Notes: generated from the letters alone by a model not told the origin. 64,000 bases of DNA from Phycisphaerales bacterium (GCA_044223975.1 JBGALI010000012.1:38422-102421); one strand, 5' to 3'; numbered from the stretch's first letter, positions 27,637-49,704 are shown. Translations and numbers: made by a program.

Positions 27637-27643
27637 AATCTAC

Positions 27644-30163: not shown

Positions 30164-30332
30164 AGCCTTTCTGGTCCGGCGAGTGTGAGTGATGCCGAGC
30201 CCGTGCCGGTGCCGGGTCGGCGGACGGTCATTGAGCAGCGATGGCGAGTATCCGGGCGCGGGTCTCCGGGGGGAGGCTCGGCCATGCCTCGGCTACCCTT
30301 CGGAGTTCAGGGTCTTGGAGTGCCGTGAGAAG

Positions 30333-30352
30333 TGATGCGCTTTCTGATGCGC
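30333..30352 (+). repeat. TGATGCGC-TTTC-TGATGCGC motif (right end of island, 33 nt from the tRNA junction)
   Basis: Identical to 22642..22661. Confidence 0.85.
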
Positions 30353-30385
30353 CTTCCCGCGACAATCCGAGAAACTGGGCAAAAA

Positions 30386-30458
30386 GGCCCTGTAGCTCAG
30401 CGGTTAGAGCAGGCGACTCATAATCGCTTGGTCCCGGGTTCGAATCCCGGCGGGGCCA
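30386..30458 (+). tRNA. tRNA-Met (anticodon CAT; elongator-type or tRNA-Ile2/lysidine not distinguishable)
   Basis: GGCCCTG/TA/GCTC-AGCGGTTA-GAGC/A/GGCGA-CTCATAA-TCGCT/TGGTC/CCGGG-TTCGAAT-CCCGG/CGGGGCC/A. Confidence 0.9.
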
Positions 30459-30985
30459 TTCGGCACAGAAGCGCACCGACGCGCAAGCCCTAGCACGGGC
30501 GACGGTTGCGGGATCGGGCCAAATCCGACCGAATGCGCCCGACCAAGCGATTGCAGCGCCGTGCGCTATCGTGCGCGGCGGTGCTGCAGCGCAATTTGCA
30601 GCGTGCTGCTGTCGCAGCGTTTGCGACAGCAGTCAAGTCCGCACGGCGCGTGGTGACGGCAGGCGTTCGGCAACGCACGCCTGTTGAACTCATTCCGAAC
30701 GGCTCGCACGTATACAATGTCGCGTTCGCACAGTTCGGGAGAAGAGCGATGCTCAATATCCTGACTCTTGAACTCCCTTGTCCGGTCGGCTCGTCCTTGC
30801 CCAAGCACAAGGCCGAGGGGCAGCCGCTCCCGCCGCCCTAGCGGAACCTCCCGCAACTGCAGACCTGACGCGGCCAGAATCCACATTCTGAGTACCCAAC
30901 GGTGACCTCGCAGGAGTTCACGCGCGCGGACTGTCCCCACGGAGATGCCGCGCGCTCGCATACCCACCGTGCGCCGAGACATTCC

Positions 30986-33016
30986 ATGATGTTCATTCTC
31001 CAGAATCTTCTTCTTTCCACCCTGGCCGCGATCGGCCTCTTCTTCGCGATTGTCCTGCTCGTCGGCTTCCGGCGCGTGCCCAACAACGGCGCCGGCATTG
31101 TCGAGAAGCGATTCACCTTCAAGGGCTCGATCCCCGGCGGCTTCATGGCGCTCAACGGAGAAGCCGGCTTCCAGCCCGAACTCCTCCGCGGCGGTCTCCA
31201 CTGGCTCATGCCCGTGCAGTACCGCGTCCACATCGTGCCGCTGGTGACGATCCCGCAGAACAAGGTCGGCTATGTCTTCGCCCGCGACGGCCGGCCCCTT
31301 GAGCCGACCCAAGCCCTTGCCTCCAACATCGAGGCCCGCTCCTACGAAGACGTCCGCGCCTTCCTCGCCGCCGACGGCCAGCGCGGCCCGCAGCGTCAGA
31401 TCCTGCGCGAAGGCACCTACGCCATCAACCTCGCCCAGTTCGTCGTCATCACCGAGGGCAAGACCTACTACCTCCCGCTCTCGCGCGACGAGCGCACCGT
31501 GTTCGACGAAATGGCCGGGCTCATCGAGGACCGCGCGGGCTTTGATCCCATCGTCATCCGCGGCGAGAACGATCTGGTCGGCGTCGTCACCGTCCACGAC
31601 GGACCCGCGCTCGCCCAAGGGGAAATCATCGCGCCGATCGTCGGCGACCCCGCGCGCCCCGACGCCTCCCACAACAACTTCCAGGACGCCGAGAAATTCC
31701 TCGCCGCCGGCGGGCGCCGCGGCCGCCAGCTCCAGGTCCTCGTCGACGGCACCTACTACGTCAACCGCCTCTTCGCCACCGTCGAGTTCATCCCCAAGAC
31801 CGTCGTCGAGGTCGGCTACGTCGGCGTCGTCGTCTCCTACACCGGCGAAAAGGGCGCGGACCTCTCCGGCTCCGAGTACTCCCACGGCGAACTGGTCAAG
31901 CAGGGCCAGCGCGGCGTGTGGAGCGAGGCCCTCCTCCCCGGCAAGTACGCTTTCAACACCTACGCGGGGAAGGTCATCCAGGTGCCCACCACCAACTTCC
32001 TCCTCAAGTGGGTCGGCGGCGAGGTCGGCGAGCACCGCTTCGACGAGCACCTCGCCGAGGTCTCCCTCATCACCAAGGACGCCTTCGAGCCCAGCCTGCC
32101 GCTGAGCGTGGTCGTGCACATCGACTACCGCAAGGCCCCGCTGGTGATCCAGCGCTTCGGCGACATCCAGCGTCTGGTCGAGCAGACCCTCGACCCCATG
32201 GTTTCGGCCTACTTCAAGAACGTCGCCCAGACCCGCACGCTCATCCAGCTCCTCCAGGACCGCAGCGCCATCCAGGACCAGGCCCGCACCGAGATGCGCG
32301 AACGCTTCGCACGCTACAACCTCGAGCTCGAGGAGGTCCTCATCGGCACGCCCAAGAGCGGCGCCTCCGCCAAGGGCGGCGACCAGCGCCTCGAGCAGAT
32401 CCTCGAACAGCTCCGCGCCCGGCAGGTTGCCGAGGAGCGCATCATGACCTACGCCCAGCAGGAGAAGGCCGCCAAGCAGGAGCGCGAGCTGCGCCAGGCC
32501 GAGGCCGTCGCGGCCCAGCAGTCCAAGCTCACCGAATCAGAGGTCTCGATCGCGATCCAGACCAACCAGGGCCGCGCCGAATACCAGCGCTCGCTTCAGG
32601 AGGCCGCGCGCGTCAAGGCCATGGCCGAGGCCGAGGCCAGCAAGGTCCGAATGCTCGCGGAGGCCGAGGCCGAGAAGGCCGCGCGCGTCGGTATTGGACA
32701 GGCGATGGCGGTCGAAGAGCAGGTCCGCGCCTACGGCGGCCCCGTGTATCAGCTCACGCAGCAGGTACTGAACCGCTTCGCGCAGGCCATCGAGCAGTCG
32801 GGCGCCGACGTGGTTCCCAAGATCGTGATGGGCGGTGGCCCCGGCGGTGGCGGCAACATGATGGAGTCGCTGCTTGCCATGCTGCTCTCCGAGCGCATGC
32901 TCCAGATGACAGCGAGTTCGTCGCCCCCGGGTGCCGAGGTCGCGGCGATCAAGGGGCAACTTCTCGAGGGAATACGAGCGACTCCGAAGGCGAACGGTTC
33001 GCCGGTACCTACCTGA
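30986..33016 (+). CDS. SPFH/band-7 (flotillin-like) membrane protein with long C-terminal coiled-coil
   Basis: N-terminal TM (MMFILQNLLLSTLAAIGLFFAIVLLVGF) followed by an SPFH-like region. The C-terminal Ala/Glu/Gln-rich repeats (EAVAAQQSKLTESEVSIAIQ...KAMAEAEASKVRMLAEAEAEKAAR) are typical of flotillins. Confidence 0.7.
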   Translation: MMFILQNLLLSTLAAIGLFFAIVLLVGFRRVPNNGAGIVEKRFTFKGSIPGGFMALNGEAGFQPELLRGGLHWLMPVQYRVHIVPLVTIPQNKVGYVFARDGRPLEPTQALASNIEARSYEDVRAFLAADGQRGPQRQILREGTYAINLAQFVVITEGKTYYLPLSRDERTVFDEMAGLIEDRAGFDPIVIRGENDLVGVVTVHDGPALAQGEIIAPIVGDPARPDASHNNFQDAEKFLAAGGRRGRQLQVLVDGTYYVNRLFATVEFIPKTVVEVGYVGVVVSYTGEKGADLSGSEYSHGELVKQGQRGVWSEALLPGKYAFNTYAGKVIQVPTTNFLLKWVGGEVGEHRFDEHLAEVSLITKDAFEPSLPLSVVVHIDYRKAPLVIQRFGDIQRLVEQTLDPMVSAYFKNVAQTRTLIQLLQDRSAIQDQARTEMRERFARYNLELEEVLIGTPKSGASAKGGDQRLEQILEQLRARQVAEERIMTYAQQEKAAKQERELRQAEAVAAQQSKLTESEVSIAIQTNQGRAEYQRSLQEAARVKAMAEAEASKVRMLAEAEAEKAARVGIGQAMAVEEQVRAYGGPVYQLTQQVLNRFAQAIEQSGADVVPKIVMGGGPGGGGNMMESLLAMLLSERMLQMTASSSPPGAEVAAIKGQLLEGIRATPKANGSPVPT

Positions 33017-33559
33017 CCGGATCGCTACGGGGTCGAGAGGCCCCGTGGCGATTTGACAACGCGGGCGCGCATGGCCCCTCAACCACCCTTCGCCCCCGAG
33101 GGGTGGATGCAACGGTTCATCTCCCACGACCGGCGCTACGCCGACCTGTACGGCGAGACTTTCCGCCGCGCCGGGCGCCTGGCGCGGGGCACCCTGCCCC
33201 GGCGGGGTGGCCGATGACGCCCATCGTCTGTGTCGCCGGTCTGTACCACCAGACGTCCGAGCTTGGCCCTTGCTCTTGGAAGCTGGCGCCCGAGCCCACG
33301 CCCGACTCGACACGTGCGGTGAAGCTGCTGGGCCAGCTGCTGACGTACACGAGGGAGTACCAGCGCACGACCGGCGATCTGTACCCCGAGAAGAACAGCG
33401 AGTTCCGCCTCGCGACGAACGAAACGTCAGCGCGTGACCGTCGGGGCTCGCTGAGGCGCAATCCCTGCCCGCCTCGTCTCCCTCTGCCCCACCGCCTTCC
33501 TCGGTGCCCGCTGTGCCTCTGTGGTGAAATCCCTCTTCCTTTCTTAGGTCCCCTTCCCC

Positions 33560-34120
33560 CGCGCCGATCGAACTCTCAGTGCCCCCCGCCCGCCGATCGA
33601 CGGCTCGGGCAGCAGCGCTCATCGTCGTGGGCGCCAGCCACACCCGCCCCCACATCGCCTCCACCACCGCCACGGGCTCGATGTCGTCCAAGTACCGAAT
33701 CGTCGTCAGGATCGACCGGTGCCCCAGCTGCTTACTGATGATCCCGACATCTATGCCCTCGGCCCGGAGCCGGGCGGCGTGGGTGTGCCGCAGCCCGTGC
33801 GCATACACGCGCTTGGCGATCCCAGCCCGGCCACTCAGCCTGCGTAGCAGCCGCCGTACGTACCCGGTGCAGACCGCCTCGCCCGACGCCGTACAAAGGG
33901 GCGGCCCCGCTTGGCCCACGTTGGCCCGGGTTCGCTCCTCCAGCCACCGGCCCACCACGCACGCCCCGACGTCCTGGCCCACGGTGCGGCTGACGTCGCC
34001 CTTGCCGTGTAACACCCGCACGACGCCCGTCGCCAAATCCAAATCTCTGGGTGACAGGGCGAGCGCCTCGCTGACCCGGACCCCGGCCCGTGCATGGGCC
34101 GTCCTCCGAGGGGGCAGCAT
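33560..34120 (-). pseudogene. Tyrosine recombinase remnant (catalytic domain only; N-terminal core-binding domain absent)
   Basis: RVSEALALSPRDL (box I Arg), YAHGLRHTHAARL (H-x-x-R) and HRSILTTIRYL (Tyr), with no upstream N-terminal domain in any frame. The listed ORF runs far past the domain. Confidence 0.6.
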
Positions 34121-34232
34121 CGCCCGGGCTCGTTCCGCGAACCAATTCGCTACCCATCCGTTTTGTTACCTCCGGGGGCGGTCAAGGATCAAGGGCGGTT
34201 GTGCCGGCGCCGCGGGCTGCTAGGCTGCGGTC

Positions 34233-35459
34233 ATGCACGCGAGCGCCGCATCCTGGATCGGTGTGAATCGGAAGTCCCGCCATGTCACGGAGGAGAGGAG
34301 GCTGGACGCGTGGGCGCGAGCGGCCGCAGTCGCGGTTGCCGTGACCGTGCTCGCAAGCTCGGGGCTTTCCCAGACCATTGCCGACATCGCACCCAACTAC
34401 CCGGGAGTCGAGGTCCGGTTCCCCCACGTCAGCCGCGACGGCTCCACGGTCGTGGGCCAGTGGTTCCCGGCCGGACCGCCAGCGGCCGGCGGCTTTCGAT
34501 GGACCGCCTCCACCGGCATCGTCTCCCTCTCGCAGTTCTCGATCGCCAACGCGACCAACGAGGATGGCTCGGTCGTGGTGGGACAGTCCATCAGTTCGCC
34601 GGCCGCGGCCATGTACTGGTCGAGTTCGACCGGCTCGGAAGTTCTGCCGCTGGTCTGGCCCGATGCAGCCCAAACCGCGCTGGCGGTTTCCGCAGACGGG
34701 AACACCGTGGTCGGGCAGGCGTCGCACGCCTTTGAGGTTCGCGGCGTGATCTGGCGCAAAGGGCCATCGGGCTGGACCGTCGGGCTGACGGGCTACTTCA
34801 CTTTCCAAGGATTCAGCGCCTTCATCGCAACCGCTGTCAGCGACGACGGCGCCACCGTCGCCGGCACCGCCAACGTCATCGGGCTCCCGTTGAACGTGGG
34901 CGTCGCGGCTTTGTGGTCCGACCCCGGCGGACCGTTCTCGATTGCCTCCCAGGGCAACGCCAAAGCGATCAGCGGCGACGGATTGACCTTGGTTGGCATC
35001 TACGGGACGAGCACGGAGCGGGCGTTTCGGTGGAGCGCGGCCGACGGCTTCCTCGACCTCGGGGCCGGCGAGGGCTTGGGGGTTTCAGGGGACGGCAACG
35101 TCGTTGTCGGCAACGCCGTCGTGTGGGTGCGCGGATTGGGCGCTGCCGCGCCCGGTGCCTTCGCCCAATCGCAAGGAGTGGACGTCAGCGGCTGGAGCGG
35201 CATCTACCCCTGGGACGTCTCGCGCGACGGACGCGTGATCGTGGGCGACGGGGTTCACCGGGTCTGGCGGATGGAGCTCCCTTTTCCGCCCGGCTGCGCT
35301 TCGGACTACAACCACGACACGTTTGTGAGCGGAGACGACTTCGACGCGTTCGTCTACGACTTTGAGTTCGGCCTCCCCTCCGCCGACGTTGACCACAACG
35401 CGTTCGTGAACGGCGACGACTTTGACTACTTCATGGACCGCTTTGTCGCGGGGTGCTGA
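34233..35459 (+). CDS. Secreted repeat protein with HAF-family-like repeats and C-terminal paired dockerin-like Ca-binding motifs
   Basis: Signal-like AAVAVAVTVLASSG. The repeats are VSRDGSTVVGQ, NEDGSVVVGQS, VSADGNTVVGQASHAFEVRGVIW and VSDDGATVAG. The C-terminus carries DYNHDTFVSGDDFDAF and DVDHNAFVNGDDFDYF. Confidence 0.55.
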   Translation: MHASAASWIGVNRKSRHVTEERRLDAWARAAAVAVAVTVLASSGLSQTIADIAPNYPGVEVRFPHVSRDGSTVVGQWFPAGPPAAGGFRWTASTGIVSLSQFSIANATNEDGSVVVGQSISSPAAAMYWSSSTGSEVLPLVWPDAAQTALAVSADGNTVVGQASHAFEVRGVIWRKGPSGWTVGLTGYFTFQGFSAFIATAVSDDGATVAGTANVIGLPLNVGVAALWSDPGGPFSIASQGNAKAISGDGLTLVGIYGTSTERAFRWSAADGFLDLGAGEGLGVSGDGNVVVGNAVVWVRGLGAAAPGAFAQSQGVDVSGWSGIYPWDVSRDGRVIVGDGVHRVWRMELPFPPGCASDYNHDTFVSGDDFDAFVYDFEFGLPSADVDHNAFVNGDDFDYFMDRFVAGC

Positions 35460-35839
35460 AGCGGCATCACCGTGCCGGTCGCTGCATCAACCAAGTGGCC
35501 CAACACCTCGCTGATCCGGAGACTTGCCCAGCACGTCAGCGCAAACGGCGCCCAATGGGAACGCCGATGGGGTGGAGAGGTTCGCGAGAGAGGCCGACGA
35601 GCGCCCACACCGGGGGTCCGACGGCATCTCAGAAGAGAGCCGGGGCGCGGATGCCTTGGCGCGCTGGTGACACGATCTGCTGTAACAGCGGGCCGCCTGC
35701 GCGCTCCCCTCGCAAAAGCTGGGTCTCGCTCCGCGGATCACGGCGCTACCTGGGGCTATCGCTCTGGGGGGTGTGCAGAGAGCCATGCTCGCGCACGCCG
35801 ATTTCGGGGATAAACGGTACAACTATTTGAATATTCATC

Positions 35840-37669
35840 TCAGGCCGCCACCCGAGCGGAGCTTTCGCCAACCAGTTCGTGGATGGCGGCGACGAAGTGT
35901 CCAATCGTGAAGGGCACCGACAGGTGTCGCCACTTTCGCCCTTCCATCACCCCAGAATCAAGTGCAGTGGGGTGCTGCGGTGGGCTCAGTAGGAGGATGG
36001 GCAACTGCTTGACCCCTCGAGCCTCCTCGGCGGCCTTCACACGTGCATAGGTGCTTATGAGTGTCGCGGCTCGGAGTGCATGCATGACCACGACTGTGGG
36101 CACTTCGTTACTCACCGGCTCGGAGACGGTCGCGCAGAATCGCCCGATCGCATCAACATCCTCGTCTTCACTCACGAAGAGAGGGCAGAACCTGCCGCCC
36201 AGTTCCGCCCGCACACGCTCCGCAACTCGCGGCCACGCGCGCCCGTTGGTCCAGGCGAGCATGGCGAACTTCAGATCGTCCGTCTGCTGCTGTGCCGCGC
36301 CCGTGATCCGAGCGAACACGTCAGCATTTATTTCGAGCTCGCGGCACAGTTCGACCGTCGAGTAGACGGTGTCGTTGCCGCTGCTGCCGAGCATGAGCGC
36401 GTGTGCGAGGCGATCGGCGAGCGCCAAACGCAAGGTCTCGGTGACCTGCCGTCCCGCCGTGGCCTTGATCTGGCCGCACGAGGCTTGGTGGAGAAGGATC
36501 GGGGTTACGAGGTCGGCGGGGAAGTGCCAGGCTCGCAGCAAGTCTTCCATGACATCTGCGTGCGTCGCCGAGAGCAGGCGCCTTTCGGCTTGTTCCAGAG
36601 GCACGCCGAGCTCTCTGGCGTTGCTGATGACCTGCGTGTAATGCGAGCCGAGCTGCTCAGCAAGCACGACGCGCCCGACATCGTGCATAAGTCCCGCGGC
36701 GAACGCTGCCTCCGGGTCGTTGGTCCGCATCGCATGAGCAATCTCCGCGCCGATGATGGCACACGCGATCGAATGCTCCCAGAAGTGTGCGGTGTCGAGA
36801 TACCCGTCGAACGCCGTGCCGCTGAATCGATCGACGACGCTGATGCCCATGACTGTTTGGCGGATGCACCCCATGCCGATTCGCACGACCGCCTTCTGCA
36901 ACGAATCGACCGGTTTGCCTCGGGTGTACGCCGAGCTGTTGGCGACCTTGAGGATCTTGATGGCCATGGCCTGGTCTTGAGCAATCACCTTGGCCACTTC
37001 GTCACTCTGACAGTTCGGGTTGCTCGTGAGCTTCACGACTTGCGACACCGCCGGCGACAACCCGTGCAGCTCACTGCATGCACGCACTCGCCTCATCAAT
37101 TCGGCCTTGCCGATCGTAACGCGTGCGGTCTGACTCCCTTCCGCAGCGAGCTTGATACCGCTGGGCACCAGAGGCGGGTCCGGCCTTGCGGTGCTTGCTT
37201 CTGCCCCCGCATGCTTGGGGGTCGGCATCGCAGCAGCGCCCGCGTGAATTGCCGCGATCTTGGCCAGGGCCGGTGGCGGGGTTCCCCGTTCGCGCGCGGT
37301 ACCCGCGGCGGTGATGGCTTTAATGCGCGCGAGCAGATCGCGAAGCGAGAACGCGGACTTGAGCACATAGCCACTGATACCGAGCTTCCCCGCATCGACG
37401 ATGCGACCGCGATCTGCCTCGGCCGACAGAATCAAGACGGGCACCCTGTACAGCGAGGCGGTGGACCGAATATGCGCAAGCACTTCCATACCGTCCACCT
37501 CAGGCATGCCCAGGTCAAGCAGGACCAGGTCAGGCACACGCCCTGAGAGCATGGCGATGGCCTGCCTGCCGTTGCAGGCGGCCAGCGTCTCGAAATTATT
37601 CTGGCGCAGTACCTCTTCGATCGGCTCTCGAAATACCGGCGCATCGTCTACGACCAGTATGGTCTTCAT
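35840..37669 (-). CDS. Response regulator with REC + HDOD domains (and a degenerate C-terminal REC-like domain)
   Basis: MKTILVVDDAPVFRE...LVLLDLGMPEVDGMEVL is the REC domain, with the phospho-acceptor Asp in LLDLGMP. The central region is HDOD-like (ILKVANSSAYTRGKPVDSLQKAVVRIG). Confidence 0.7.
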   Translation of the reverse strand: MKTILVVDDAPVFREPIEEVLRQNNFETLAACNGRQAIAMLSGRVPDLVLLDLGMPEVDGMEVLAHIRSTASLYRVPVLILSAEADRGRIVDAGKLGISGYVLKSAFSLRDLLARIKAITAAGTARERGTPPPALAKIAAIHAGAAAMPTPKHAGAEASTARPDPPLVPSGIKLAAEGSQTARVTIGKAELMRRVRACSELHGLSPAVSQVVKLTSNPNCQSDEVAKVIAQDQAMAIKILKVANSSAYTRGKPVDSLQKAVVRIGMGCIRQTVMGISVVDRFSGTAFDGYLDTAHFWEHSIACAIIGAEIAHAMRTNDPEAAFAAGLMHDVGRVVLAEQLGSHYTQVISNARELGVPLEQAERRLLSATHADVMEDLLRAWHFPADLVTPILLHQASCGQIKATAGRQVTETLRLALADRLAHALMLGSSGNDTVYSTVELCRELEINADVFARITGAAQQQTDDLKFAMLAWTNGRAWPRVAERVRAELGGRFCPLFVSEDEDVDAIGRFCATVSEPVSNEVPTVVVMHALRAATLISTYARVKAAEEARGVKQLPILLLSPPQHPTALDSGVMEGRKWRHLSVPFTIGHFVAAIHELVGESSARVAA

Positions 37670-38162
37670 TGTTGTTACATCCTCGGGCTCGTCGGAGGCC
37701 CCCCTTCCACGCCGGGACGTTCTCGTGCGCCTGCACGATCTCGCGGACTCGTATCGACACGGTCGGCGAGTACGCTGAGGTGTACGCGGCAATTGCTCTG
37801 GCCCCCTCGTTTCCCGCGGTCTGCATTCGCGGTTCCCGCAGTGGGCGTGCTGGGCGCGCGGGGCAGCGAGGACTTATGGGACACGGTCGCTCCTCAAGGG
37901 GCCGCCGGTGAGGTGCGGGAGAGGCTCGAACGAGCCAGAGCAAGTCATCCGCTCCCATGCACTGAACCGAGTGTCCGGACGTGGCGATGAGTCTCAGAAG
38001 TGTCTCCCCGCCCCCGCTGGAGCAACGCAGCCCGTTACCTTCAAGTACTTGATGCGCCCGGGAGCGCTTCACGGCAATCGGGGGGGCAGGCTCAGGGTGG
38101 CATCGCGGGCGTGGGGCGATCTGTCGGCACGAGCGGGCGCGCTTGCCCGCCAAGGTGGGGCT

Positions 38163-40484
<2,322 letters not shown>

Positions 40485-40492
40485 GAGATTCC

Positions 40493-40897
40493 ATGATCAG
40501 CACACCGCGGTCCGATTGCCCCCCACCGTTCGCGCTGCCCGAATTGCTCGAGCGCTGCATGGGTAGCACCGACGTCGCCGCGCTCGTGCTGGACAAATTT
40601 GAAATCCAGCTTCGAGAAGACGTTGGAGCGATCGCATCCCTGATTACCGCTCACGATGCGGTCCAGATCGCTCGCAAAGCCCACGCCCTGAAGGGCGCGG
40701 CCGGCTCTGTGGCGGCGCAGACGCTGCGCGTTCTGGCGGCGCAAGTGGAGTCATCGGCCAAACAGGATCGGCTCGACGCTATAGCCGGAGACTTTGCCGC
40801 GCTCCGCTCGGAGATCGAGCGCTGCCTGACGCATCTTCCAGGAGCCCGGCACGCGCTGCTCTCCGGCATTGCCCCGTCACGCGAGGTCTCGCCATGA
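40493..40897 (+). CDS. Hpt (histidine phosphotransfer) domain protein
   Basis: IARKAHALKGAAGSVAA is the Hpt HxxKG motif, behind an AGGAG RBS. Its stop overlaps the next start (ATGA). Confidence 0.8.
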   Translation: MISTPRSDCPPPFALPELLERCMGSTDVAALVLDKFEIQLREDVGAIASLITAHDAVQIARKAHALKGAAGSVAAQTLRVLAAQVESSAKQDRLDAIAGDFAALRSEIERCLTHLPGARHALLSGIAPSREVSP

Positions 40898-41910
40898 AGG
40901 TCCTGGTCGTCGATGACAACGAAGTATCACTTTCATTGCTGCGGGCCACGCTGCAGAGCGCCGGGTATGAAGTGGAGACCGCGCACGACGGGGCGGCGGC
41001 GCTTGAGCGGATCCGACGCGCTGGCCTCCGACTTGTCGTTACTGACTGGGAAATGCCGGGGATGAGCGGCCTTGAGCTGTGCCGCGCCATCCGGGCCGAT
41101 GACATCTCGGGCTATGTGTACTTCGTTCTGGTGACGTCCCATGACACGCCACAGGATGCCGTCGAGGGCCTCTCCGCGGGCGCCGACGACTTTGTCGCAA
41201 AGCCTTTCAATCCTCCGGAGCTAATCGCGCGGGTGCGCGTCGGCGAGCGCATTCTGGCTCTTGAAACGCGTGACGTGGCGATCTTTGCAATGGCGAAGCT
41301 CGCCGAGTCGCGCGACCCGGAAACGGGCGCGCACCTCGAGCGGGTCCGCAGCTATTGCCGCGTCCTGGCGAAGGATCTGGGATCTCTCCCGAAGTTCCGC
41401 GATCAGATCGATGCCGAGTTCATTCGCCTCATCTACCTGACCAGCCCGTTGCACGACATTGGCAAGGTGGGGATCCCGGACAACGTGCTGCTCAAAGCCG
41501 GTCGGTTGAACGACCGGGAGTTCGAGATCATGCAGATGCACGCGATGCTGGGAGCGCAGACGCTCGACGCCGCGCTGCGCGCGTTCCCGGGCGTGAAGTT
41601 CCTTGAGATGGCTCGGGACATCGCCGCGACTCACCACGAGCGTTGGGATGGCTCGGGCTACCCCGCGGGACTTGCGGGGACCGCGATACCGCTGAGCGGA
41701 CGCATCACGGCGCTCGCGGATGTTTACGATGCGCTCACGTCCAAGCGGGTATACAAGGCCGCGTTCTGCCATGAAATGGCCGCGTCCATGATCAGAAAGG
41801 ACGCCGGCTCGCACTTTGATCCAGACATCGTGGATGCGTTCCTGCGCACCGAGAAGCAGTTCATCGAAATCCGGGCTCACTTTGCCGAGACGTACGCCGC
41901 AGCCGCGTAG
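40894..41910 (+). CDS. Response regulator with HD-GYP (c-di-GMP phosphodiesterase-type) output domain
   Basis: REC (MKVLVVDDNEV...VVTDWEMPGMSG) followed by HD-GYP motifs (HDIGKVGIP, HHERWDGSGYP). Confidence 0.85.
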   Translation: MKVLVVDDNEVSLSLLRATLQSAGYEVETAHDGAAALERIRRAGLRLVVTDWEMPGMSGLELCRAIRADDISGYVYFVLVTSHDTPQDAVEGLSAGADDFVAKPFNPPELIARVRVGERILALETRDVAIFAMAKLAESRDPETGAHLERVRSYCRVLAKDLGSLPKFRDQIDAEFIRLIYLTSPLHDIGKVGIPDNVLLKAGRLNDREFEIMQMHAMLGAQTLDAALRAFPGVKFLEMARDIAATHHERWDGSGYPAGLAGTAIPLSGRITALADVYDALTSKRVYKAAFCHEMAASMIRKDAGSHFDPDIVDAFLRTEKQFIEIRAHFAETYAAAA

Positions 41911-41952
41911 TTCGTCGCGGCAGGGCAATCCGGCGCCCGAGGACGGAGGAGC

Positions 41953-44922
41953 TCAGTTGGCAGCGGGTCCGGGAGGACTCCCGCCGGGGGTGCGTTCAAC
42001 GCTCGGAGAAGCGGGGCCTTGCTCGCTCCCTTCAATCAAGGAAAGGAGAGTGTTGGCCAGAGTCTTGGGATTGATGGGTTTACTGATATGCGAGTCCATT
42101 CCAGCGGCCAGGCACCGGTCACGGTCATCCTGCATCGCGTTCGCGGTTAATGCGACGATGGGAACCCGGCGAGCCCCGCTTGCACGCTCCGTGCGTCGTA
42201 TCGCTTGTGTGGCTTCGAAGCCGTCCATGACGGGCATTTGACAATCCATCAGGATCAGGTCGTACTTCCCGCTTTCCGCCGCGGCGACCGCTTCCTTGCC
42301 GTCGGGGACGATGTCGCAATGGAATCCCAGCTTCGCGAGCAGTTCGGACGCGACGATCTGGTTGATCTCGTTGTCCTCGGCGAGCAGTATTCTGGCGCCG
42401 CGCGACGCGATCGGTGCGGGCTCCGATTTCGATTCAGAACGTGGACTGTCCGCAGGTGGTCTTTCTGCCCGCGCGAGCACGCCCATGATGGTGTCGAATA
42501 GCTCCGACTGCCGGACCGGCTTGGCGATTGCTCCCGCGAAGCCGAGCGCGCGCAGCGACTCATGCTCAATCCGGTCGTCCATCGTCAGCAGGACCATGAG
42601 CGCGGTTCCCGCGATATCCGCACGAGACCTGACCGCGTTGCTCAGCTCGAACGCGTCCATATCGGGAAGGTCTCGGTCGATCAGCGCAACCTGAAAGGGC
42701 CGCTTGGCGGCCGCAGCAGCCGTCAGCGCGTTGAGCGCGGCCTGTCCGTCGCGCACGGCCGACTCGTCCAGCCCCCAACTGGCAATCTGCTCCCGGAGCA
42801 CTCCCAGGTGGGCCTCGTCATCATCCACCAGCAGCACGCGAATCCCTCGCGGATCGACGTCGTGGCGCTGGGGGAGCGGCTGGTCAGCCACGCGGCCCAA
42901 TTTGACCGTGAACCAGAACACCGAGCCCTTCTCCGGTTCGCTCTCGACCCCCACCTGACCGCCCATCAGCTCGGCAAGTCGCTTGGCGATAGCCAAGCCC
43001 AATCCCGTGCCGCCGTACGCCCGGGTCGTCTGAGCGTCCGCCTGCGAGAAAGCCTTGAAAAGGCGGTCGAGCCGATCCGCGGGAATCCCGATGCCGGTAT
43101 CGGTGACGCTGATTCTGACCGTCACCGATTCGGTGTCCTCGGCTTCGAGCACCACTCGCAGCACAACGCTTCCCTTGCGTGTAAACTTGATCGCGTTGCT
43201 GATTAGATTGACGACCACCTGCCGCAGTCGGTCGGCATCGCCCATGACCATCCGCGGGACCCCCGGATGTACGCTGCTCGCCAGCTCCAACCCTTTCTGC
43301 TGGGCACCGGGTGCGAGCATCTGCACAAACTCCTCGAGGGCTGCGTGCAGATTGAATTGGAACGAGGCTAGTTCCAGCTTCCCCGCCTCGATCTTCGAGA
43401 AATCCAAAATATCGTTCACAATGGCCGTGAGTGACTCGGCAGACGACTTGGTGATCGCCGCGTACCGGCGCTGCTGGGGGGTCATCGGGGTGTCAAGAAG
43501 CAACTCGATCATCCCGACCACGCCGTTGAGAGGTGTGCGTATTTCGTGACTCATGTGGGCCAGGAACTCGCTCTTGGCGCGGCTGGCCGCTTCGGCCACC
43601 GCTCTCTCATGTTCCAGCTTCAGGCCGCGGACCAACTCCGCCTCCTTACGGTCCGTGATGTCCAGCACCACGCCCTGGATGAACAATGGGCGGCCGGCCG
43701 CGTCCTCATACACGCGTCCCCGCACCGCGACCCAGCCGAGCGACTTGTCAGCCCGGACGACCCGATACTCCTCGTCATACTCGCAGCGCGTCCGGATCGC
43801 GCGCTCGATCGCCGCCACGACACGGTCGCGGTCCTCGGGCAAGATCGCATTTCGGTACGGCGCGGCGTCATCGGGTCGTTCGGAGGATCCCCCCAGGAGC
43901 GATCTGGCCCGGTCGGACATCTCTACGCGATCTTCTGTCAGGCTCCAACGCCACACGCCGATCTCGCCCGCGGCAAGCGCCATCCGCAGGCGATGTTCGC
44001 TTTCCTGAAGAGATGCTTCTGCGCGCTTGCGCTGCGTGATATCGCGCACGATCTTCGCCACTTCCACGGGCTTGCCCGTGGGGTCTTTGATCGTGGACAG
44101 CGTCACCGCGACGTCCACTCGCTCGCCGCCCTTCTTTACACGTTCGGTCTCAAGCCGAATGACCTCTCCCGCACGCAGGCGCACCAAGAGGTCAGTCCAT
44201 TCCGCTGTTCGTTCCGGCGGCACCAGCACCGATAGGGGCTTGCCGATGACCTCGGGTGCTTCGTACCCGAAGAGGCGTACCGCCGCAGCATTCCATGTGG
44301 TGATCGTTCCCGTGAGATCTTCCGTAATTATGGCGTCGTCGGAATGCTCGACGATCGAAGCCAGCTTTGCGTCGGTGACTTCAAAGCGGCGCACACGGCT
44401 TTTCAGTTCGTCAGCGTGCGCGGCGTTTTGCGCCTGGGCGGCTTTCATGCGACTAAGAGTGGTAACGTCCTCAACTCGGTGGATGATGTACTCGACCGCT
44501 CCGTCGGGACCCATGACAGGAATGTTCTGCGGGCTCCAGGATCGCTCCTCAAAGCCTCCCCCCTCCGCTTCAGGACGGCGGATGTCGTACTTTTGAATAG
44601 GCATGATGTCAACGGTTCGTGTTGACAGCACGCGGTCCAGGGACGCGTGGAGGTTGCGCACCCCGTTAGCTCCCGGGTCATCGGGGTTGTCCGGGAAGAC
44701 TTCAAACAGCGGTTGTCCCACGATCTTTGCGCGCGTGGTCATCGTGGCGCGGAGATACGCATCGGATACCGCGACAATCCTCAAGGATGGGCTGAGAACG
44801 AGATAAAGGTCTGGCACCGACGCGAAGAGCGCGCCATAGTCGGGGCTGCCCTGGTCAATGGACGCCGTGTCTTCAGTTCTATTGCTCATCGAGTCCAGCC
44901 CACGGGCGTAGGGCTCCTTCAA
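41953..44922 (-). CDS. PAS-domain hybrid sensor histidine kinase with two C-terminal REC domains
   Basis: Several PAS segments; H-box [18 protein letters not shown]; HATPase (GGTGLGLAI); two REC domains (VLLVDDD..., ILLAEDNEINQ...[13 protein letters not shown]). Confidence 0.85.
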   Translation of the reverse strand: MKEPYARGLDSMSNRTEDTASIDQGSPDYGALFASVPDLYLVLSPSLRIVAVSDAYLRATMTTRAKIVGQPLFEVFPDNPDDPGANGVRNLHASLDRVLSTRTVDIMPIQKYDIRRPEAEGGGFEERSWSPQNIPVMGPDGAVEYIIHRVEDVTTLSRMKAAQAQNAAHADELKSRVRRFEVTDAKLASIVEHSDDAIITEDLTGTITTWNAAAVRLFGYEAPEVIGKPLSVLVPPERTAEWTDLLVRLRAGEVIRLETERVKKGGERVDVAVTLSTIKDPTGKPVEVAKIVRDITQRKRAEASLQESEHRLRMALAAGEIGVWRWSLTEDRVEMSDRARSLLGGSSERPDDAAPYRNAILPEDRDRVVAAIERAIRTRCEYDEEYRVVRADKSLGWVAVRGRVYEDAAGRPLFIQGVVLDITDRKEAELVRGLKLEHERAVAEAASRAKSEFLAHMSHEIRTPLNGVVGMIELLLDTPMTPQQRRYAAITKSSAESLTAIVNDILDFSKIEAGKLELASFQFNLHAALEEFVQMLAPGAQQKGLELASSVHPGVPRMVMGDADRLRQVVVNLISNAIKFTRKGSVVLRVVLEAEDTESVTVRISVTDTGIGIPADRLDRLFKAFSQADAQTTRAYGGTGLGLAIAKRLAELMGGQVGVESEPEKGSVFWFTVKLGRVADQPLPQRHDVDPRGIRVLLVDDDEAHLGVLREQIASWGLDESAVRDGQAALNALTAAAAAKRPFQVALIDRDLPDMDAFELSNAVRSRADIAGTALMVLLTMDDRIEHESLRALGFAGAIAKPVRQSELFDTIMGVLARAERPPADSPRSESKSEPAPIASRGARILLAEDNEINQIVASELLAKLGFHCDIVPDGKEAVAAAESGKYDLILMDCQMPVMDGFEATQAIRRTERASGARRVPIVALTANAMQDDRDRCLAAGMDSHISKPINPKTLANTLLSLIEGSEQGPASPSVERTPGGSPPGPAAN

Positions 44923-45478
44923 ATCCCTGTCTGAGAAACTCCGAGCGCGGCCAGCTCATCGCCATACTCCATCGCACGTGAACAGGTCGAGCAAGGGCGC
45001 CCAGGCTGATCGAGTGCCACACTACCGCGCCGACGTGGAGTCGGCGTCGATTCGCGCATGAATTCGCGCGTGAAAATTTACTTATGTTGCTTTCCCATGT
45101 TTCGCCGTCGCACCGCGCAGGTTATTAGCACTCGGCCGGTGCCGGAGTCGCGATCCCCAAAGCCTCGCGCTTTGGGTTGACCACGCCGGGCGTCTCCTGC
45201 GCCGCGGCACCCCGCCGCTCGGTCCCTTCGCGTCTTCAACTCGTAGGTAAGAAGAAATTCATTCTTGTGTCAGGATCGCGCCATACGCGATTGCGAAACT
45301 CAGACCCGGAGAGAAGGAACAACCGGGCCGCAGGCCGCGCGCCCGATGTCGAGACCGCCGGGTCCCCCACGCGGCGGTCTTCTTTGATGCTTAGCGGATT
45401 GGTGCATCAGTTCGCACCCGCCAAGCCCGATGGCACCTCACTCAGTTCAACGAGGCAGGGCGGCAGGCGACCTCCCGC

Positions 45479-45802
45479 ATGGGGCTTCTTCATTCCATCA
45501 AACTCCTCTGGTCGGGCCGCGGAAGCCGCCGGGCTCCCCGTACAGGGGGCGTGGGGATTACCTGCGAACTCGGAGATGTGGTGGATTACAGCACCACCGG
45601 CATGCGTGTGATGACCGAGATCAAGCCCGCGGTGGGGCTGGGTGATGTCCTGCACCTGGAGGTGACAGGTCCAGGTTGGACTCGCCGACTCTCTGTTCGC
45701 GTGGCGCGGGTCACTCGGGCCTCGCTGAGCCTCTGGGAGGTTGGCCTTGAGTTTCTGGGTGAGCCAGGACCATCCATCCCTACGACGGCCTCGCATCGAT
45801 GA
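45479..45802 (+). CDS. PilZ domain protein (c-di-GMP receptor-type)
   Basis: RRAPR (RxxxR) followed by DYSTTG (DxSxxG) at canonical spacing. Confidence 0.75.
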   Translation: MGLLHSIKLLWSGRGSRRAPRTGGVGITCELGDVVDYSTTGMRVMTEIKPAVGLGDVLHLEVTGPGWTRRLSVRVARVTRASLSLWEVGLEFLGEPGPSIPTTASHR

Positions 45803-45936
45803 CCTTGAATTCGGAGGAGGACCTCCCCACTGGACATCGTGCGGACAGCCGCCCCCGTGCCGTGGCGTGGTGGGCGCCAGCCGCTCGTCGTTCGGGTTCA
45901 CTAGAGTTGGTGGCGGACGCGCGTCCGACACTCCGA

Positions 45937-46890
45937 TCATCCCCCGCTGGTCTTTCCTCCCATCACCCGAAGGATCTGTCCTGCGATGTAGCTCGAATCC
46001 GCGCTAGACGCGAGGAAGACGTACGCGGGCGCTAGTTCCTCGGGCTGGGCCGGGCGATCGATGGGTGGTCCGGTCTTGCCGCGACCGAAGTTGGCGATTC
46101 GTTGGCGAGAAGCGCCGCGGTCGCTCGGGTTCAGCGGCGTCCAAACGGGACCGGGGGCCACCGCGTTTACGCGGATTCCTTGGGCGATCAGCTGGCGCGC
46201 CAGGCTCTTGGTGAGGGTGTTGATCGCGCCCTTGGTCGCGCTGTAGTCGGGCAGCTCGGGTGGCCCGTCGAACGCCGTCTCGGAGCTCGTCACAATGATC
46301 GATGCACCTCGCTTCAGTCGCGGCAGGGCAGCCTTCACGAGCCAGAAGTACGCGTACACGTTTGTCTTGAACGTACGGTCAAACTCCGCGTCGGTGACGT
46401 CAAGAATCGATTTCTTGCGGTTCTGCCAGGCGGCGTTGCTCACCAGCACATCGAGCCTCCCGAAGGCACGCCATGTTCTCTCCACGATCGATCTGCACGT
46501 CTTTGGGTCGCGCAGATCGCCCGGCAAACGCAGACACCGCTTCCCCAAACTCTCGACCGCCGCTGCGGTTTCTTTCGCATCCGATTCCTCGGCGCGCAGA
46601 TAGTTGATGGCGACGTCCGCGCCCTCGCGTGCGTACATGACCGCCACGGCACGCCCGATCCCCGAATCCCCGCCCGTGATGAGCGCCGCCTGGCCGGCCA
46701 GTTTGCCCGCGGGAGCAAAGTCGGGGGCTTCGTAGCGCGGTCGCGGTCGGAGCTTCGATTCAATGCCCGGCTTGCTCTGGTGCTGCCGCGGGAACGGAGG
46801 GCGGGGCTGCTCCGCGGGCCTCCTGCGGGACGTGGGCTTGCGCATCGCGGGCTGCCTCCGATTGGTGTTAACGCTGTCCACCCCGCGCAT
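45937..46890 (-). CDS. SDR-family NAD(P)-dependent oxidoreductase
   Basis: TGGDSGIGRA (TGxxxGIG), NAAW, and the catalytic YSATKGA (YxxxK). The exact start is uncertain. Confidence 0.8.
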   Translation of the reverse strand: MRGVDSVNTNRRQPAMRKPTSRRRPAEQPRPPFPRQHQSKPGIESKLRPRPRYEAPDFAPAGKLAGQAALITGGDSGIGRAVAVMYAREGADVAINYLRAEESDAKETAAAVESLGKRCLRLPGDLRDPKTCRSIVERTWRAFGRLDVLVSNAAWQNRKKSILDVTDAEFDRTFKTNVYAYFWLVKAALPRLKRGASIIVTSSETAFDGPPELPDYSATKGAINTLTKSLARQLIAQGIRVNAVAPGPVWTPLNPSDRGASRQRIANFGRGKTGPPIDRPAQPEELAPAYVFLASSADSSYIAGQILRVMGGKTSGG

Positions 46891-47229
46891 CCGAAGGTGC
46901 GCGGCGGGACCACGTGACGGTCTAGTAAAACGGGGTTCATCGTGGGCGGGCCCTTCCTGACTCTGCTCGGACCGCCGCGATCGCCTCAGACATCGCGAAT
47001 CCGCCGGGCCGGAAGTGACGCAGGGTGATCTGGCTCAAGGGCGCTCGCCAACCTGCACGCGAGGGGCAGTGCGCTTCCGGCGACCGAGACATGCTTCGTG
47101 CGTACGCCCATTCCGGTGCCGGACGCGTTGACCCCGCTGCTCGCCCAGCGTCCTTTCAAGAGAGTTTCACGATCGATTCAGTCGCCATGGCGGGGACCAT
47201 CCGAAGTGGTAGTAGAGGAGAACCACGCC

Positions 47230-47529
47230 ATGTCTAGCAAGATCAATGCAGCCCGTGGTGAACGGCGCCGGGCACCCGTCAAAGCCAAGTTCACGGCGCG
47301 GCATGATGTGGCGATGGACATCGTAATCCAGACGCTTATCGCTCACCGCGGGGCCATCACTCTCCGGGAACTGGTGCGAGAGGTCGTGGACGAGCGCAAC
47401 GATGCGTCACCCGCGCGTTTGACGCGGCGCGAACTGACTGCGGCGCTGCACCATCTTGAGCCGCTGGGACTACGCGACTCGGCGAAGAGTCATCCTCGGA
47501 CGGAGCGGGGGCTGCGGTCGGCGGCTTGA
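47230..47529 (+). CDS. Hypothetical protein (99 aa)
   Basis: ATG behind a GAGGAGAA RBS. No recognisable family. Confidence 0.35.
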   Translation: MSSKINAARGERRRAPVKAKFTARHDVAMDIVIQTLIAHRGAITLRELVREVVDERNDASPARLTRRELTAALHHLEPLGLRDSAKSHPRTERGLRSAA

Positions 47530-47574
47530 ACGTTCCTTCCGCGGCGCGCAGCCGCGATCGCGGGGCGGTTTGTA

Positions 47575-48312
47575 TTGACCCACACCGCAATATCCCCCAT
47601 GCCTCGCCTTTCGGCACGTCCGCCTGCGAAATGGCGAGTTCGTGTTCTAGCGTGGGGGAGAGCGGCCCTTACCGAGCCCATGCTCTTGGGCGCGGCCCTT
47701 GGACTGAACTGCTCCGTCTGGGCGTTTCTTACGCTCGCGGACAAGGTGCGCAAGTCGGGCACGCTCTCATGGGACGATCGGCTGCTCCTTCTTTTCCGCC
47801 GACAGGACGCACCGTCGGACCCAGTGGGACCGCCCTGGCTGTCACTGGCGATGCGCGACCTCTCGGCGTTGGGCGGGCCGGTGGCGATGACGATCGTGGT
47901 GGGCAGCGTCGTTGGGTATCTGCTTATCTTGGGCTACCGGCGCGCTGCGTGGAGGCTCGTGCTGGCCGCGGGGGGTGGCGGAGTGCTTGCCGTCGCGCTG
48001 AAGAGCGTCTATGGACGACCAAGACCGGCCGTCGTCGGGCACCTGATGGAGGCTACCAGCCCGTCGTTCCCGAGCGGCCATTCGATGGTGTCCGCGGTGG
48101 TGTACGCGACCCTGGGCGTCATGATCGCGCGGCTGACGCCCGGCAGGCTGGGGAAAGTTTACGTAGTCGCCGTCTTCCTGCTGGTGCCCGCGTTGATCGG
48201 GCTGAGCCGCGTGTACTTGGGCGTTCACTACCCCAGCGACGTGGTCGCGGGCTGGGCCGCAGGGCTGGTGTGGAGCCTGGCATGCTCGATCGTGCTGCGG
48301 CGGTGGCGCTGA
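47575..48312 (+). CDS. PAP2-family (type 2 phosphatidic acid/undecaprenyl-PP) phosphatase, membrane
   Basis: Three PAP2 motifs: KSVYGRPRP, PSGHS, SRVYLGVHYPSDV. Confidence 0.85.
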   Translation: MTHTAISPMPRLSARPPAKWRVRVLAWGRAALTEPMLLGAALGLNCSVWAFLTLADKVRKSGTLSWDDRLLLLFRRQDAPSDPVGPPWLSLAMRDLSALGGPVAMTIVVGSVVGYLLILGYRRAAWRLVLAAGGGGVLAVALKSVYGRPRPAVVGHLMEATSPSFPSGHSMVSAVVYATLGVMIARLTPGRLGKVYVVAVFLLVPALIGLSRVYLGVHYPSDVVAGWAAGLVWSLACSIVLRRWR

Positions 48313-48434
48313 CAGCGTCGAGCCTCGCCTTCTGCCACGGAAGGGGGGGCTGTGCTGGGCGGTGACGCTGCAGACGTTGAGCCAAGCCGTGCCCGCCACG
48401 GCACTCCTAAACTCTCAAACCTTGCCTTTCCTCT

Positions 48435-48776
48435 TTGAACGGAGGGCTCTCGATGCCCGACACCTCGAACGTGTGGATGTACGGCGTGGGTGCCCTTATC
48501 GGCGCCGTGCTGGCGGCCGCTGTGGCGTACTTTGGGTCTTCGCGCGGGCACTCGTTCTGGCTCTGCTTCGTGCTGGCCGTGGCGACCACGCCCCTCGTGG
48601 CCTGGATCATTCTCGCGCTCATCCCCGAGCGCGTGCGGCCGTACAGGCCGCCCCCGGACCTTCTACTCGCCATCACGTTGGAAAAGGAGCGGATGAAGGC
48701 TCAAGCAGAAGTCGCTGCATCACCCGCCCCGCACTCCGGACACACCGCGCCCGCCGCAAGCGCGGCCCGGTCGTAG
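48435..48776 (+). CDS. Hypothetical small membrane protein
   Basis: Two hydrophobic helices (VGALIGAVLAAAVAYF; FWLCFVLAVATTPLVAWIILALI). Confidence 0.35.
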   Translation: MNGGLSMPDTSNVWMYGVGALIGAVLAAAVAYFGSSRGHSFWLCFVLAVATTPLVAWIILALIPERVRPYRPPPDLLLAITLEKERMKAQAEVAASPAPHSGHTAPAASAARS

Positions 48777-49582
48777 CCGCAGGCGAGGCACGCGCCCTCG
48801 CGGGCGCGGCGGAGGTATTTCGCGTCCGCCCTCCATGCCGCGGCGGTGGCGAGGAGAGAGAGAAGGGGTAGCGGCCAGAGGGGGATTATGACGAATCGTT
48901 GCCCGCTGATCGCGCCACCATCGAACCACCAACCAGACAAAGCGGTGCTGCGCTTAAACTCAAACTCGCCGATCCCAAACCACGGCGCGGGACCGGGAGG
49001 CTCGATGACCATGAGCCGGGATGCCTCGCAAACTAGGGCGTAATGCCAAGGGGCATACCAGGTCACTCCCCACCACCCGCTCCCGATCCACACCACCAGC
49101 AGTAGCACGGTGAGCACCGCGCCGCCCCACTTCACCGTCTCGCGGACCGCCCGCTTCACCTTGTCGCGCGTGCTTCCCACCTGCGCAGTCTTCCGCGCCT
49201 CGGTGTGGGCGACCGTCTTCCCACACGCGGACTCGGGGCGTCGAGACCACGACATCATCGACCGCGCCATCGTGGACGCGGCGTTCTCATCGTAGGGGAT
49301 GATTGAGCCGGCCGAAGGCAGTTCGATGTCCGTGGCGTCGTCCTTGAGCCGCGGAATCAGCCGCCCAATAGCGCGACGATCAGCGAATTGACCGGACCCC
49401 GCGTGTCCTACGCACCGCTCGCCCGCGAGTCTCGCTCGCGCGCCTCCCGCCCGCGACGACTCCCCCACCGCCGCTCGCGCACCGTTGCGCACGGCGCGGC
49501 ATTCACGCGCAGGAGCGGACAGCGGGCGCGCGAGAGAGAACATGCGTGAAGCGCGCGGGAAACACATGGGGTTTTTCTTCAA
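48701..49582 (-). CDS. Hypothetical membrane protein with C-terminal CxxC...CxxC
   Basis: TM segments (AVLTVLLLVVWIG; FVIIPLWPLPLLSLLATAAAW) and a C-terminal CLACG...CPECG. The start is uncertain; it may be the internal Met near 49270. Confidence 0.35.
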   Translation of the reverse strand: MKKNPMCFPRASRMFSLARPLSAPARECRAVRNGARAAVGESSRAGGARARLAGERCVGHAGSGQFADRRAIGRLIPRLKDDATDIELPSAGSIIPYDENAASTMARSMMSWSRRPESACGKTVAHTEARKTAQVGSTRDKVKRAVRETVKWGGAVLTVLLLVVWIGSGWWGVTWYAPWHYALVCEASRLMVIEPPGPAPWFGIGEFEFKRSTALSGWWFDGGAISGQRFVIIPLWPLPLLSLLATAAAWRADAKYLRRAREGACLACGYDRAALAAGAVCPECGAGDAATSA

Positions 49583-49612
49583 AACATGCCGGGTATTCTT
49601 CCCGACTCAGCG

Positions 49613-49647
49613 TCGCTCGGTCCCGGGTTCGAATCCCGGCGGGGCCA
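49613..49647 (+). repeat. 35-nt copy of the tRNA-Met 3' end (T-arm + acceptor), 1 mismatch: right-hand att remnant of a second island
   Basis: TCGCTCGGTCCCGGGTTCGAATCCCGGCGGGGCCA versus tRNA 30424..30458 TCGCTTGGTCCCGGGTTCGAATCCCGGCGGGGCCA. Confidence 0.8.
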
Positions 49648-49704
49648 TCGGCCAGGAGACGGCGCCGTTCAGCACGGGCGGCCGTGCGACGCCAGCGCCC
49701 TGCG

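Follow-up and report, generated by a model that had tools for sequence, protein, structure and literature searches.

A 19-kb interval between a tRNA(CAT) gene and a displaced copy of its 3′ part in a Phycisphaerales bacterium, read as a possible patchwork remnant of a genomic island

We analysed a 64,000-nucleotide stretch of DNA from a Phycisphaerales bacterium (GCA_044223975.1, JBGALI010000012.1:38422-102421), here called the window, and observed that the interval following its tRNA(CAT) gene ends, about 19 kb downstream, at a displaced copy of the 3′ part of that gene. On our favoured reading, to which we give a probability of roughly 0.55, the interval is the immobile patchwork remnant of an island that at one time entered the tRNA within its 3′ part, by tyrosine-integrase recombination. 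The feature is of an ordinary kind, a tRNA-bounded genomic island; whether the whole 19 kb arrived in that single event is uncertain. Another element, E1 (22.5-30.4 kb), lies on the upstream side of the tRNA.

The geometry of the tRNA copies carries this reading. The two that bound the interval are as follows.

30386-30458, + strand: intact tRNA(CAT), read as the regenerated target and as the left attachment site (attL side) of the interval (ARAGORN; Rfam tRNA)
49603-49648, + strand: displaced tRNA 3′ fragment, from a remnant of the anticodon stem-loop to the 3′ end plus 1 nt; right border, an attR-like scar

The intact gene scores 72.1 bits against the Rfam tRNA model (cut-off 29) and is the sole intact tRNA(CAT) there, in agreement with ARAGORN. 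The displaced fragment receives no tRNA call from ARAGORN and only a weak T-arm/acceptor match from Rfam. A repeat search aligned 49603-49648 with 30414-30459 at 42 of 46 positions. The alignment holds an unbroken identity of 30 nt (30430-30459 = 49619-49648), beyond which it continues with TCGCT, three mismatches in the anticodon loop (TAA vs GCG) and CGACTCA; the fourth difference is a T to C in the variable loop. A preliminary description of this DNA had pointed to a 35-mer with one mismatch (49613-49647 against 30424-30458, the same T-to-C change). That match is present in the sequence, and the repeat is in fact longer. The check for chance recurrence that the description proposed also came out in its favour: a 29-mer core of the repeat has exactly two copies in the window, is absent from 175 other loci compared and found no match in any of 100 shuffles. 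Past the tRNA part, on the downstream side of the interval, we found collinear short matches that were not significant (p about 0.09).

An intact tRNA thus stands at one end of the interval, with a cognate 3′ fragment in the same orientation downstream on the same replicon, and the pair passes the Islander configuration and orientation filters (PMC4383910). Such a 3′ fragment accompanies 3760 of the 3919 Islander islands (PMC4383910), and tRNA gene fragments are documented to arise mainly through the insertion of mobile elements (PMC9897764). Because of this configuration and this known origin of fragments, we read the fragment as a classical integration scar, as the preliminary description had done. 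The description named the gene tRNA-Met, which is also its ARAGORN label. E. coli genes that carry the annotation tRNA-Ile match it at 88-89% identity over its full length, and no initiator features were seen when its sequence was read by eye; it is probably the lysidine-dependent tRNA-Ile2 rather than tRNA-Met.

The second line of evidence is the content of the distal 14 kb (35.7-49.6 kb), which is compositionally foreign. GC content along the window was distributed as follows.

1-22463, left flank: GC 0.687
22502-30385, E1: GC 0.645
30459-35700, tRNA-proximal part of the interval: GC 0.676
35701-49602, distal part of the interval: GC 0.645
49649-64000, right flank: GC 0.674

Mean GC at third codon positions (GC3) was 0.761 for the ten genes at 35.8-49.6 kb and 0.860 for 23 flank genes (Mann-Whitney p = 1.8e-5). 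The deviation from the flanks that the preliminary description had proposed to look for is therefore present at 35.7-49.6 kb, and the remaining part, 30.46-35.7 kb, is host-like. The foreign block ends exactly at the tRNA 3′ fragment.

Since the DNA is about 68% GC, genes were called by third-position GC and checked against Pfam, NCBIfam and PHROGs. For some of them we used the gene call of L175, a 13.7-kb contig of a conspecific metagenome-assembled genome (MAG; GCA_044222255.1) that matches 34098-47807 at 99.1-99.9%. The distal part and the first gene beyond it read as follows.

35840-37669, − strand: response regulator with an HDOD output domain, 609 amino acids (aa) in the L175 gene call (PF00072 + PF08668)
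38163-40484, + strand: hybrid histidine kinase (HisKA, HATPase_c, receiver; Pfam), 773 aa in L175
40493-40897, + strand: histidine phosphotransfer (Hpt) protein (PF01627, 45.8 bits)
40894-41910, + strand: response regulator with HD-GYP (HD_5), a putative cyclic di-GMP (c-di-GMP) phosphodiesterase (PF00072 + PF13487)
41953-44889, − strand: PAS-PAS hybrid histidine kinase with two receiver domains, 978 aa (Pfam)
45479-45802, + strand: PilZ-domain protein, 107 aa (PF07238, 24.4 bits against a cut-off of 22.5; RRxxR and DxSxxG motifs)
45937-46845, − strand: short-chain dehydrogenase/reductase (SDR; PF13561/PF00106; L175 gene call)
47575-48312, + strand: PAP2 phosphatase-family membrane protein (PF01569, 84.4 bits)
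48701-49582, − strand: membrane protein with a C-terminal CxxC...CxxC zinc ribbon, last gene before the fragment (translation)
49705-50163, − strand: MarR regulator, first gene of the right flank (PF01047)

At the PilZ site, the L175 gene call takes the opposite strand (45407-45940, −). The zinc-ribbon protein had no family match in the Pfam, NCBIfam and PHROGs checks, and PHROGs detected no phage genes within the interval. The two-component genes, PilZ, SDR and PAP2, as well as a flotillin considered below, were confirmed by Pfam or NCBIfam where the preliminary description had placed them. Its "complete c-di-GMP module" was an overstatement, as the set in the window is without a GGDEF cyclase. 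The best homologue of the PAS kinase came from the conspecific MAG and the next was only 58% identical. Given that the flotillin has more than ten homologues at 80-92%, the absence of a kinase homologue above 58% outside the conspecific indicates that the cargo is patchily distributed.

On the other side of the tRNA, E1 is a separate, intact-looking unit of 7.9 kb that inserted into the tRNA from its 5′ side and carries an integrase, a helix-turn-helix protein and a primase-like gene. Its left end is marked by a third tRNA copy.

22464-22501, + strand: displaced 5′ half of the tRNA, positions 1-38 exact; left end of E1 (repeat search, sequence)

We consider E1 a separate unit because a 20-mer occurs near both of its ends and because its integrase acquires a family-like tail only when its own ends are joined. 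The exact 20-nt direct repeat, TGATGCGCTTTCTGATGCGC, lies within the unit at 22631-22650 and 30333-30352, at distances of 130 nt from the left end and 33 nt from the right end, before the tRNA; none of 100 shuffles gave a match, and the two copies are possibly arm-type integrase binding sites. The integrase open reading frame (ORF; 22015-23763, −) runs antisense through the tRNA 5′ half. In the integrated state it encodes 582 aa with a junk-like tail within host DNA; with E1's own ends joined it encodes 485 aa and ends in a WPxLPxxxRxxI tail (30190-30385), a tail with which homologues P0485 and P0377 also terminate (E = 0.006 and 0.001). Judging from these two forms, the attachment site of E1 may lie inside its integrase gene, in which case integration would swap the C-terminal tail. 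This arrangement recalls the archaeal SSV-type integrases. On the upstream side, for E1, similarity beyond the tRNA part consisted of short collinear matches (p = 0.035, counted as not significant), and IMG/VR held no relatives of the E1 integrase, whether searched with the single protein or with an alignment. Within the primase-like gene we also observed a 9-nt tandem array, GATGGGACT, of about 6 copies (25118-25179).

The relatives of the E1 integrase may connect this element to the interval downstream. Antisense-tRNA peptides end 30 of 150 homologues. In P0364 and P0366 the reading frame spans a full tRNA of the same type (WPRPDSNRGPSDYESPALTAELQG, compared with WPRRDSNPGPSDYESPALTAELQG in the window), and in P0363, P0367 and the E1 integrase it spans the tRNA 5′ half only. 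The E1 integrase family therefore targets this tRNA in both configurations, and an integrase gene directly against the full tRNA, as in P0364 and P0366, is the layout that yields 3′ fragments. As both occur in the family, a member since lost may reasonably be proposed as the maker of the downstream 3′ fragment. The description of this locus as an integration hotspot is borne out to the extent that the tRNA has been occupied twice, E1 being bounded by the exact 5′ half-copy. The word "tandem" is imprecise: the 5′ fragment of E1 lies upstream, the 3′ fragment of the other element downstream and the intact tRNA between them. As the fragment left upstream is a 5′ one, the tRNA has an element on either side, and the two do not form a one-sided array with fragments of the same kind and integrases of their own; only E1 keeps an intact integrase. 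With E1 on its 5′ side, the present tRNA has foreign DNA on both sides, an observation made here on a probable tRNA-Ile2, a gene that is typically single-copy and essential.

From these data we propose the following course of events. The island's insertion would have split the tRNA gene, with the element supplying a new 3′ part and thereby restoring the gene now intact at 30386-30458. The 3′ part that belonged to the host would have been moved 19 kb downstream, to 49603-49648, where the repeat is now observed. The integrase responsible would since have been lost, none being present in the interval, and a plausible culprit is the E1-integrase family, which appears to target the same tRNA. The distal 14 kb would be the foreign cargo, comprising two hybrid kinases, Hpt, HD-GYP and HDOD regulators, PilZ, SDR and PAP2. 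The host-like proximal 5 kb, with the flotillin, a dead recombinase and a dockerin protein, most likely would have replaced the integrase end of the island later. E1 would have inserted separately into the same tRNA from the 5′ side.

The proximal 5 kb holds four features.

30459-30663: spacer of 205 bp from the tRNA to the flotillin unit, without homology in relatives
30986-33016, + strand: flotillin/SPFH protein (Band_7), 676 aa (PF01145)
33560-34120, − strand: short Xer-like tyrosine recombinase, pseudogene (PF00589, translation, homologue alignment)
34233-35459, + strand: putative surface protein, 408 aa, with a GC-type dockerin C-terminus (NF041540)

The recombinase is a poor candidate for having made the tRNA repeat. 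Its ORF, starting from 34120, matches PF00589 with 68.6 bits, its residues 12-145 covering positions 34-167 of the 172 in the profile, and its translation retains the catalytic R, K, HxxR, H and Y. It is a pseudogene: an in-frame stop cuts off about 50 N-terminal residues, and at the other end the frame stays open as far as 32537. The preliminary description correctly recognized a tyrosine recombinase at this position and took it to lack its N-terminal domain. The full-length homologues closest to it are short as well, at about 200-230 aa. The best 120 homologues measure 160-300 aa, mostly about 200-230, and contain PF00589 only; those with a named source are nearly all from Phycisphaerales or Phycisphaerae MAGs. 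In the alignment, a short basic N-terminus of about 20-30 residues precedes the catalytic domain, and one member of 195 aa (L090) spans PF00589 positions 2-169 of 172. We defined a classical phage or island integrase by arm-binding and core-binding N-terminal domains followed by a catalytic domain, about 350-450 aa in all, and the full-length homologues are without such N-terminal DNA-binding domains. A truncated classical integrase was accordingly ruled out, since the full-length homologues are short and Xer-like, and seven of their loci had no tRNA in up to 10 kb of flank.

The family aligns with the catalytic halves of XerA, XerC and XerD (XerA 5hxy, XerD 1a0p; E about 1e-17) and shares the Xer catalytic domain, but it is without the N-terminal core-binding domain and hence the two-domain architecture of these resolvases. 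Only the C-terminal half of the NCBIfam models was matched, with scores far below cut-off (XerC 124-133 bits against 335; XerA 124-127 against 220). FimB/FimE invertases are similar in length (around 200 aa), but the invertase model gave 65-67 bits against a cut-off of 222, and no flanking inverted repeats were found; in five loci there were no convincing inverted repeats beside the gene that would indicate an invertible promoter. We scanned the flanks of recombinase loci for tRNA genes over up to 10 kb, less where a contig ends, and found none in seven independent loci (L006/7, L008/9, L090-L093, L176). No conserved motif was present upstream of the gene across distant members and no recombination site was identified. 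The genes are multi-copy, with several distinct clusters in one 3.8-Mb genome and four copies in the complete Phycisphaerae genome CP075368, and adjoin primase-helicase and ParB-methylase modules and variable cargo (RHS toxin, immunoglobulin/laminin-domain proteins, restriction genes). The proposed search for full-length homologues of the remnant thus led to a short, multi-copy family below all NCBIfam cut-offs. By comparison with these homologues, we regard the window recombinase as a decayed member of a naturally minimal, Phycisphaerales-specific family. Where an island would be expected to contain an integrase, the interval has a PF00589 pseudogene whose family has no tRNA nearby in the seven other loci scanned.

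Two observations on this family deserve mention. In two Phycisphaeraceae genomes (L008:9749 and L009:9749), an identity of 97.5-97.9% sets in 250 bp upstream of the recombinase and holds to the right for more than 10 kb, apart from an alignment gap of about 650 bp (L008 13600-14245). Left of that point, the primase, ParB-methylase and cargo genes are 71-86% identical or unrelated. The recombinase thus borders a hypervariable block and belongs to the conserved DNA beside it. In a distant member of the Phycisphaerales (L176:7899-15701, GCA_030834475.1), a compact version of the window's cargo lies beside an intact short recombinase of 206 aa that is 59% identical to that of the window. This cargo, preceded by a type I restriction system that has an AAA_13 protein, includes an HDOD regulator, a PAS kinase with Hpt and an HD-GYP regulator at 49-68% aa identity to those of the window (68% for the HD-GYP regulator). 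Two zinc-ribbon membrane paralogues, 32% identical to the 48701-49582 protein, are also found by the short recombinase.

The flotillin likewise resembles host genes. Its GC3 of 0.905 is indistinguishable from that of flank genes, and, besides the 100%-identical P0121, its homologues number more than ten at 80-92% aa identity; nearly all proteins that it matches are from Phycisphaerales. In four relatives the gene order is Peptidase_M24, flotillin, (LigT) and TilS-like, and two others differ again; in none of these six was there a tRNA within 10 kb or a recombinase adjoining the flotillin. DNA homology to relatives begins at 30657-30664, and between the window and their flotillin loci it is limited to 30657-32979. 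Upstream of it, 30459-30663 contained no integrase remnant, as tblastn with E1-family integrases found antisense tRNA only. On its homologues and their neighbourhoods, we take the flotillin to be a conserved, host-like Phycisphaerales gene in a non-ancestral context. It had been listed as island cargo; the gene is where it was reported, and its conservation and its other contexts in six relatives speak against that role. The 408-aa protein, divergently oriented from the recombinase, had been called an HAF/dockerin-like surface protein. The dockerin part is supported by a score of 26.7 bits against NF041540, just under the cut-off of 29, and no HAF match or other Pfam match was found. Its C-terminus is 54% identical to that of an 862-aa recombinase neighbour in L006.

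The right-flank operon (MarR, membrane fusion protein (MFP) and resistance-nodulation-division (RND) pump; 49.7-54.8 kb) has its nearest relatives in Phycisphaeraceae and Phycisphaerales MAGs, at 48-86% aa identity. The MarR-MFP-RND order is kept in L001 and L003, and the break in synteny falls at the tRNA fragment. An MFP search of species-representative genomes gave relatives at 48-71% identity that keep the order and share nothing upstream. A metagenome search with the left-flank RND pump gave best matches at 72-74% identity, with no downstream synteny. Only where the left pump has distant relatives (52-54%) is its gene followed by a tRNA(CAT), at a distance of 140-380 bp. We also observed that the MFP/RND efflux pairs of the two flanks (17118-21639 and 50330-54804) are paralogous, with about 30% aa identity and an 88-nt stretch at 76%. 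The differences between the window and L175 are clustered, with 33 in 38-39 kb, 27 in 45-46 kb and near zero elsewhere, in addition to a 39-bp indel at about 35772, which suggests strain-level recombination or a mixed-population consensus.

Several of these results weigh against the island reading. The short recombinase family is tRNA-free at seven loci and L176 pairs the signalling cargo with one of its members; the cargo could therefore have come by another route. A conserved, host-like flotillin adjoins the tRNA, and the one other strain available carries the same block. No empty site was found among the relatives examined in the MFP, RND and flotillin searches, none of which keeps both flanks, because these relatives are too rearranged. 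The interval 30459-49602 yielded no tRNA-type integrase or remnant in the E1-family search or with PHROGs. Finally, the TAA vs GCG mismatches fall where a crossover centred on the anticodon would require identity.

The main rival, which we consider a lesser though serious possibility, is that the foreign block (about 34.2-49.6 kb) built up on the upstream side of the short recombinase, in the way that variable cargo does in relatives, with the tRNA fragment being an older, unrelated scar whose original element has been lost. Such accretion would account for the shift in composition at about 35.7 kb and not at the tRNA, for the end of contig L175 just 22 nt into the recombinase gene and for the boundary 250 bp upstream of the recombinase in L008/L009. 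It also agrees with L176, where the HDOD, kinase-Hpt and HD-GYP genes stand directly beside an intact recombinase and the zinc-ribbon paralogues. However, it must treat as coincidence that the foreign block ends exactly at the tRNA fragment; the association of cargo with recombinase is known from two examples only, in a multi-copy family whose adjacency can be due to chance, and the searches for a recombination site identified none. A broader version, which strikes us as unlikely, would have short recombinases mark chromosomal landing pads in Phycisphaerales, with a host-side enzyme capturing variable cargo. Its site would lie about 250 bp upstream of the gene, loosely like an integron or IMEX element, and 34-49.6 kb would be one capture beside an unrelated, older tRNA scar.

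That the region is native chromosome seems quite improbable to us. Weakly expressed regulatory genes would then explain the low GC3 and a local partial duplication of the tRNA the fragment, in keeping with the conserved, host-like flotillin, the recurrence of the signalling gene set at family-level divergence in L176 and the block common to the conspecific strain. No known non-integrative process, however, gives a clean tRNA 3′ part plus 1 nt in direct orientation 19 kb away, and both the shift in composition and the loss of synteny fall at the fragment. In addition, the relatives with flotillin matches of 80-92% give no kinase match above 58%, and a recombinase pseudogene lies within the interval. 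More improbable still is one composite element of 27 kb (22.5-49.6 kb) that entered the anticodon loop with a full tRNA of its own and split the host tRNA. The two fragments do complement each other, one covering positions 1-38 and the other 39-73 with an overlap of 7 nt, CGACTCA; a degenerate tRNA-like stretch forms when the sequence left of the 3′ fragment is joined to that right of the 5′ fragment, and the join gives an integrase ORF of 430-431 aa, a normal length for the family. Yet the exact 20-mer, matched in 0 of 100 shuffles, stands beside both ends of the 7.9-kb unit, and the WPxLPxxxRxxI tail arises only on joining the 7.9-kb ends and is absent from the 27-kb join. The internal tRNA matches the 5′ fragment at 38/38 and the 3′ fragment at 35/36 positions, as expected for attachment-site duplications, and composition is discontinuous over the 27 kb. 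We rejected this model on the positions of the 20-mer and on the integrase tail.

If the island reading is true, the interval is a routine case, from a phylum that has received little study, of an island gained at a tRNA and then decayed. In Phycisphaerales, a two-component module linked to c-di-GMP (HD-GYP, HDOD, PilZ and hybrid kinases) would then be accessory cargo that moves horizontally. The interval also illustrates that a Pfam integrase match between a tRNA and its fragment can come from an enzyme other than the one responsible for the island. Of greater value are two side observations, the lineage-specific minimal tyrosine recombinases by hypervariable DNA and the attachment site of E1, seemingly inside its own integrase gene.

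Among known systems, the interval resembles the decayed islands and cryptic prophages at enterobacterial tRNA genes, in which an attachment scar is kept, integrase function is lost and cargo is fixed, as here. It differs from them in its host, a member of the Planctomycetota, in its signalling cargo and in its mosaic content. With the tandem arrays of Islander, in which several islands follow one another on a single side of a tRNA and every island has an integrase and a fragment to itself (PMC4383910), the locus shares two elements at one tRNA gene. Unlike those arrays, it has a 5′ fragment upstream, a 3′ fragment downstream and the intact gene between them, with an integrase only in the upstream element; the 5′ fragment type is a minority in Islander (159/3919; PMC4383910). 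Compared with Islander tRNA islands in general (PMC4383910), the sole recombinase here is a pseudogene of a short family not associated with tRNAs, the tRNA-proximal part is host-like, no empty site is documented and the anticodon loop holds three mismatches. What it has in common with them is an intact tRNA with a direct 3′ fragment downstream, a length of 19 kb, a PF00589 ORF inside and compositionally foreign cargo.

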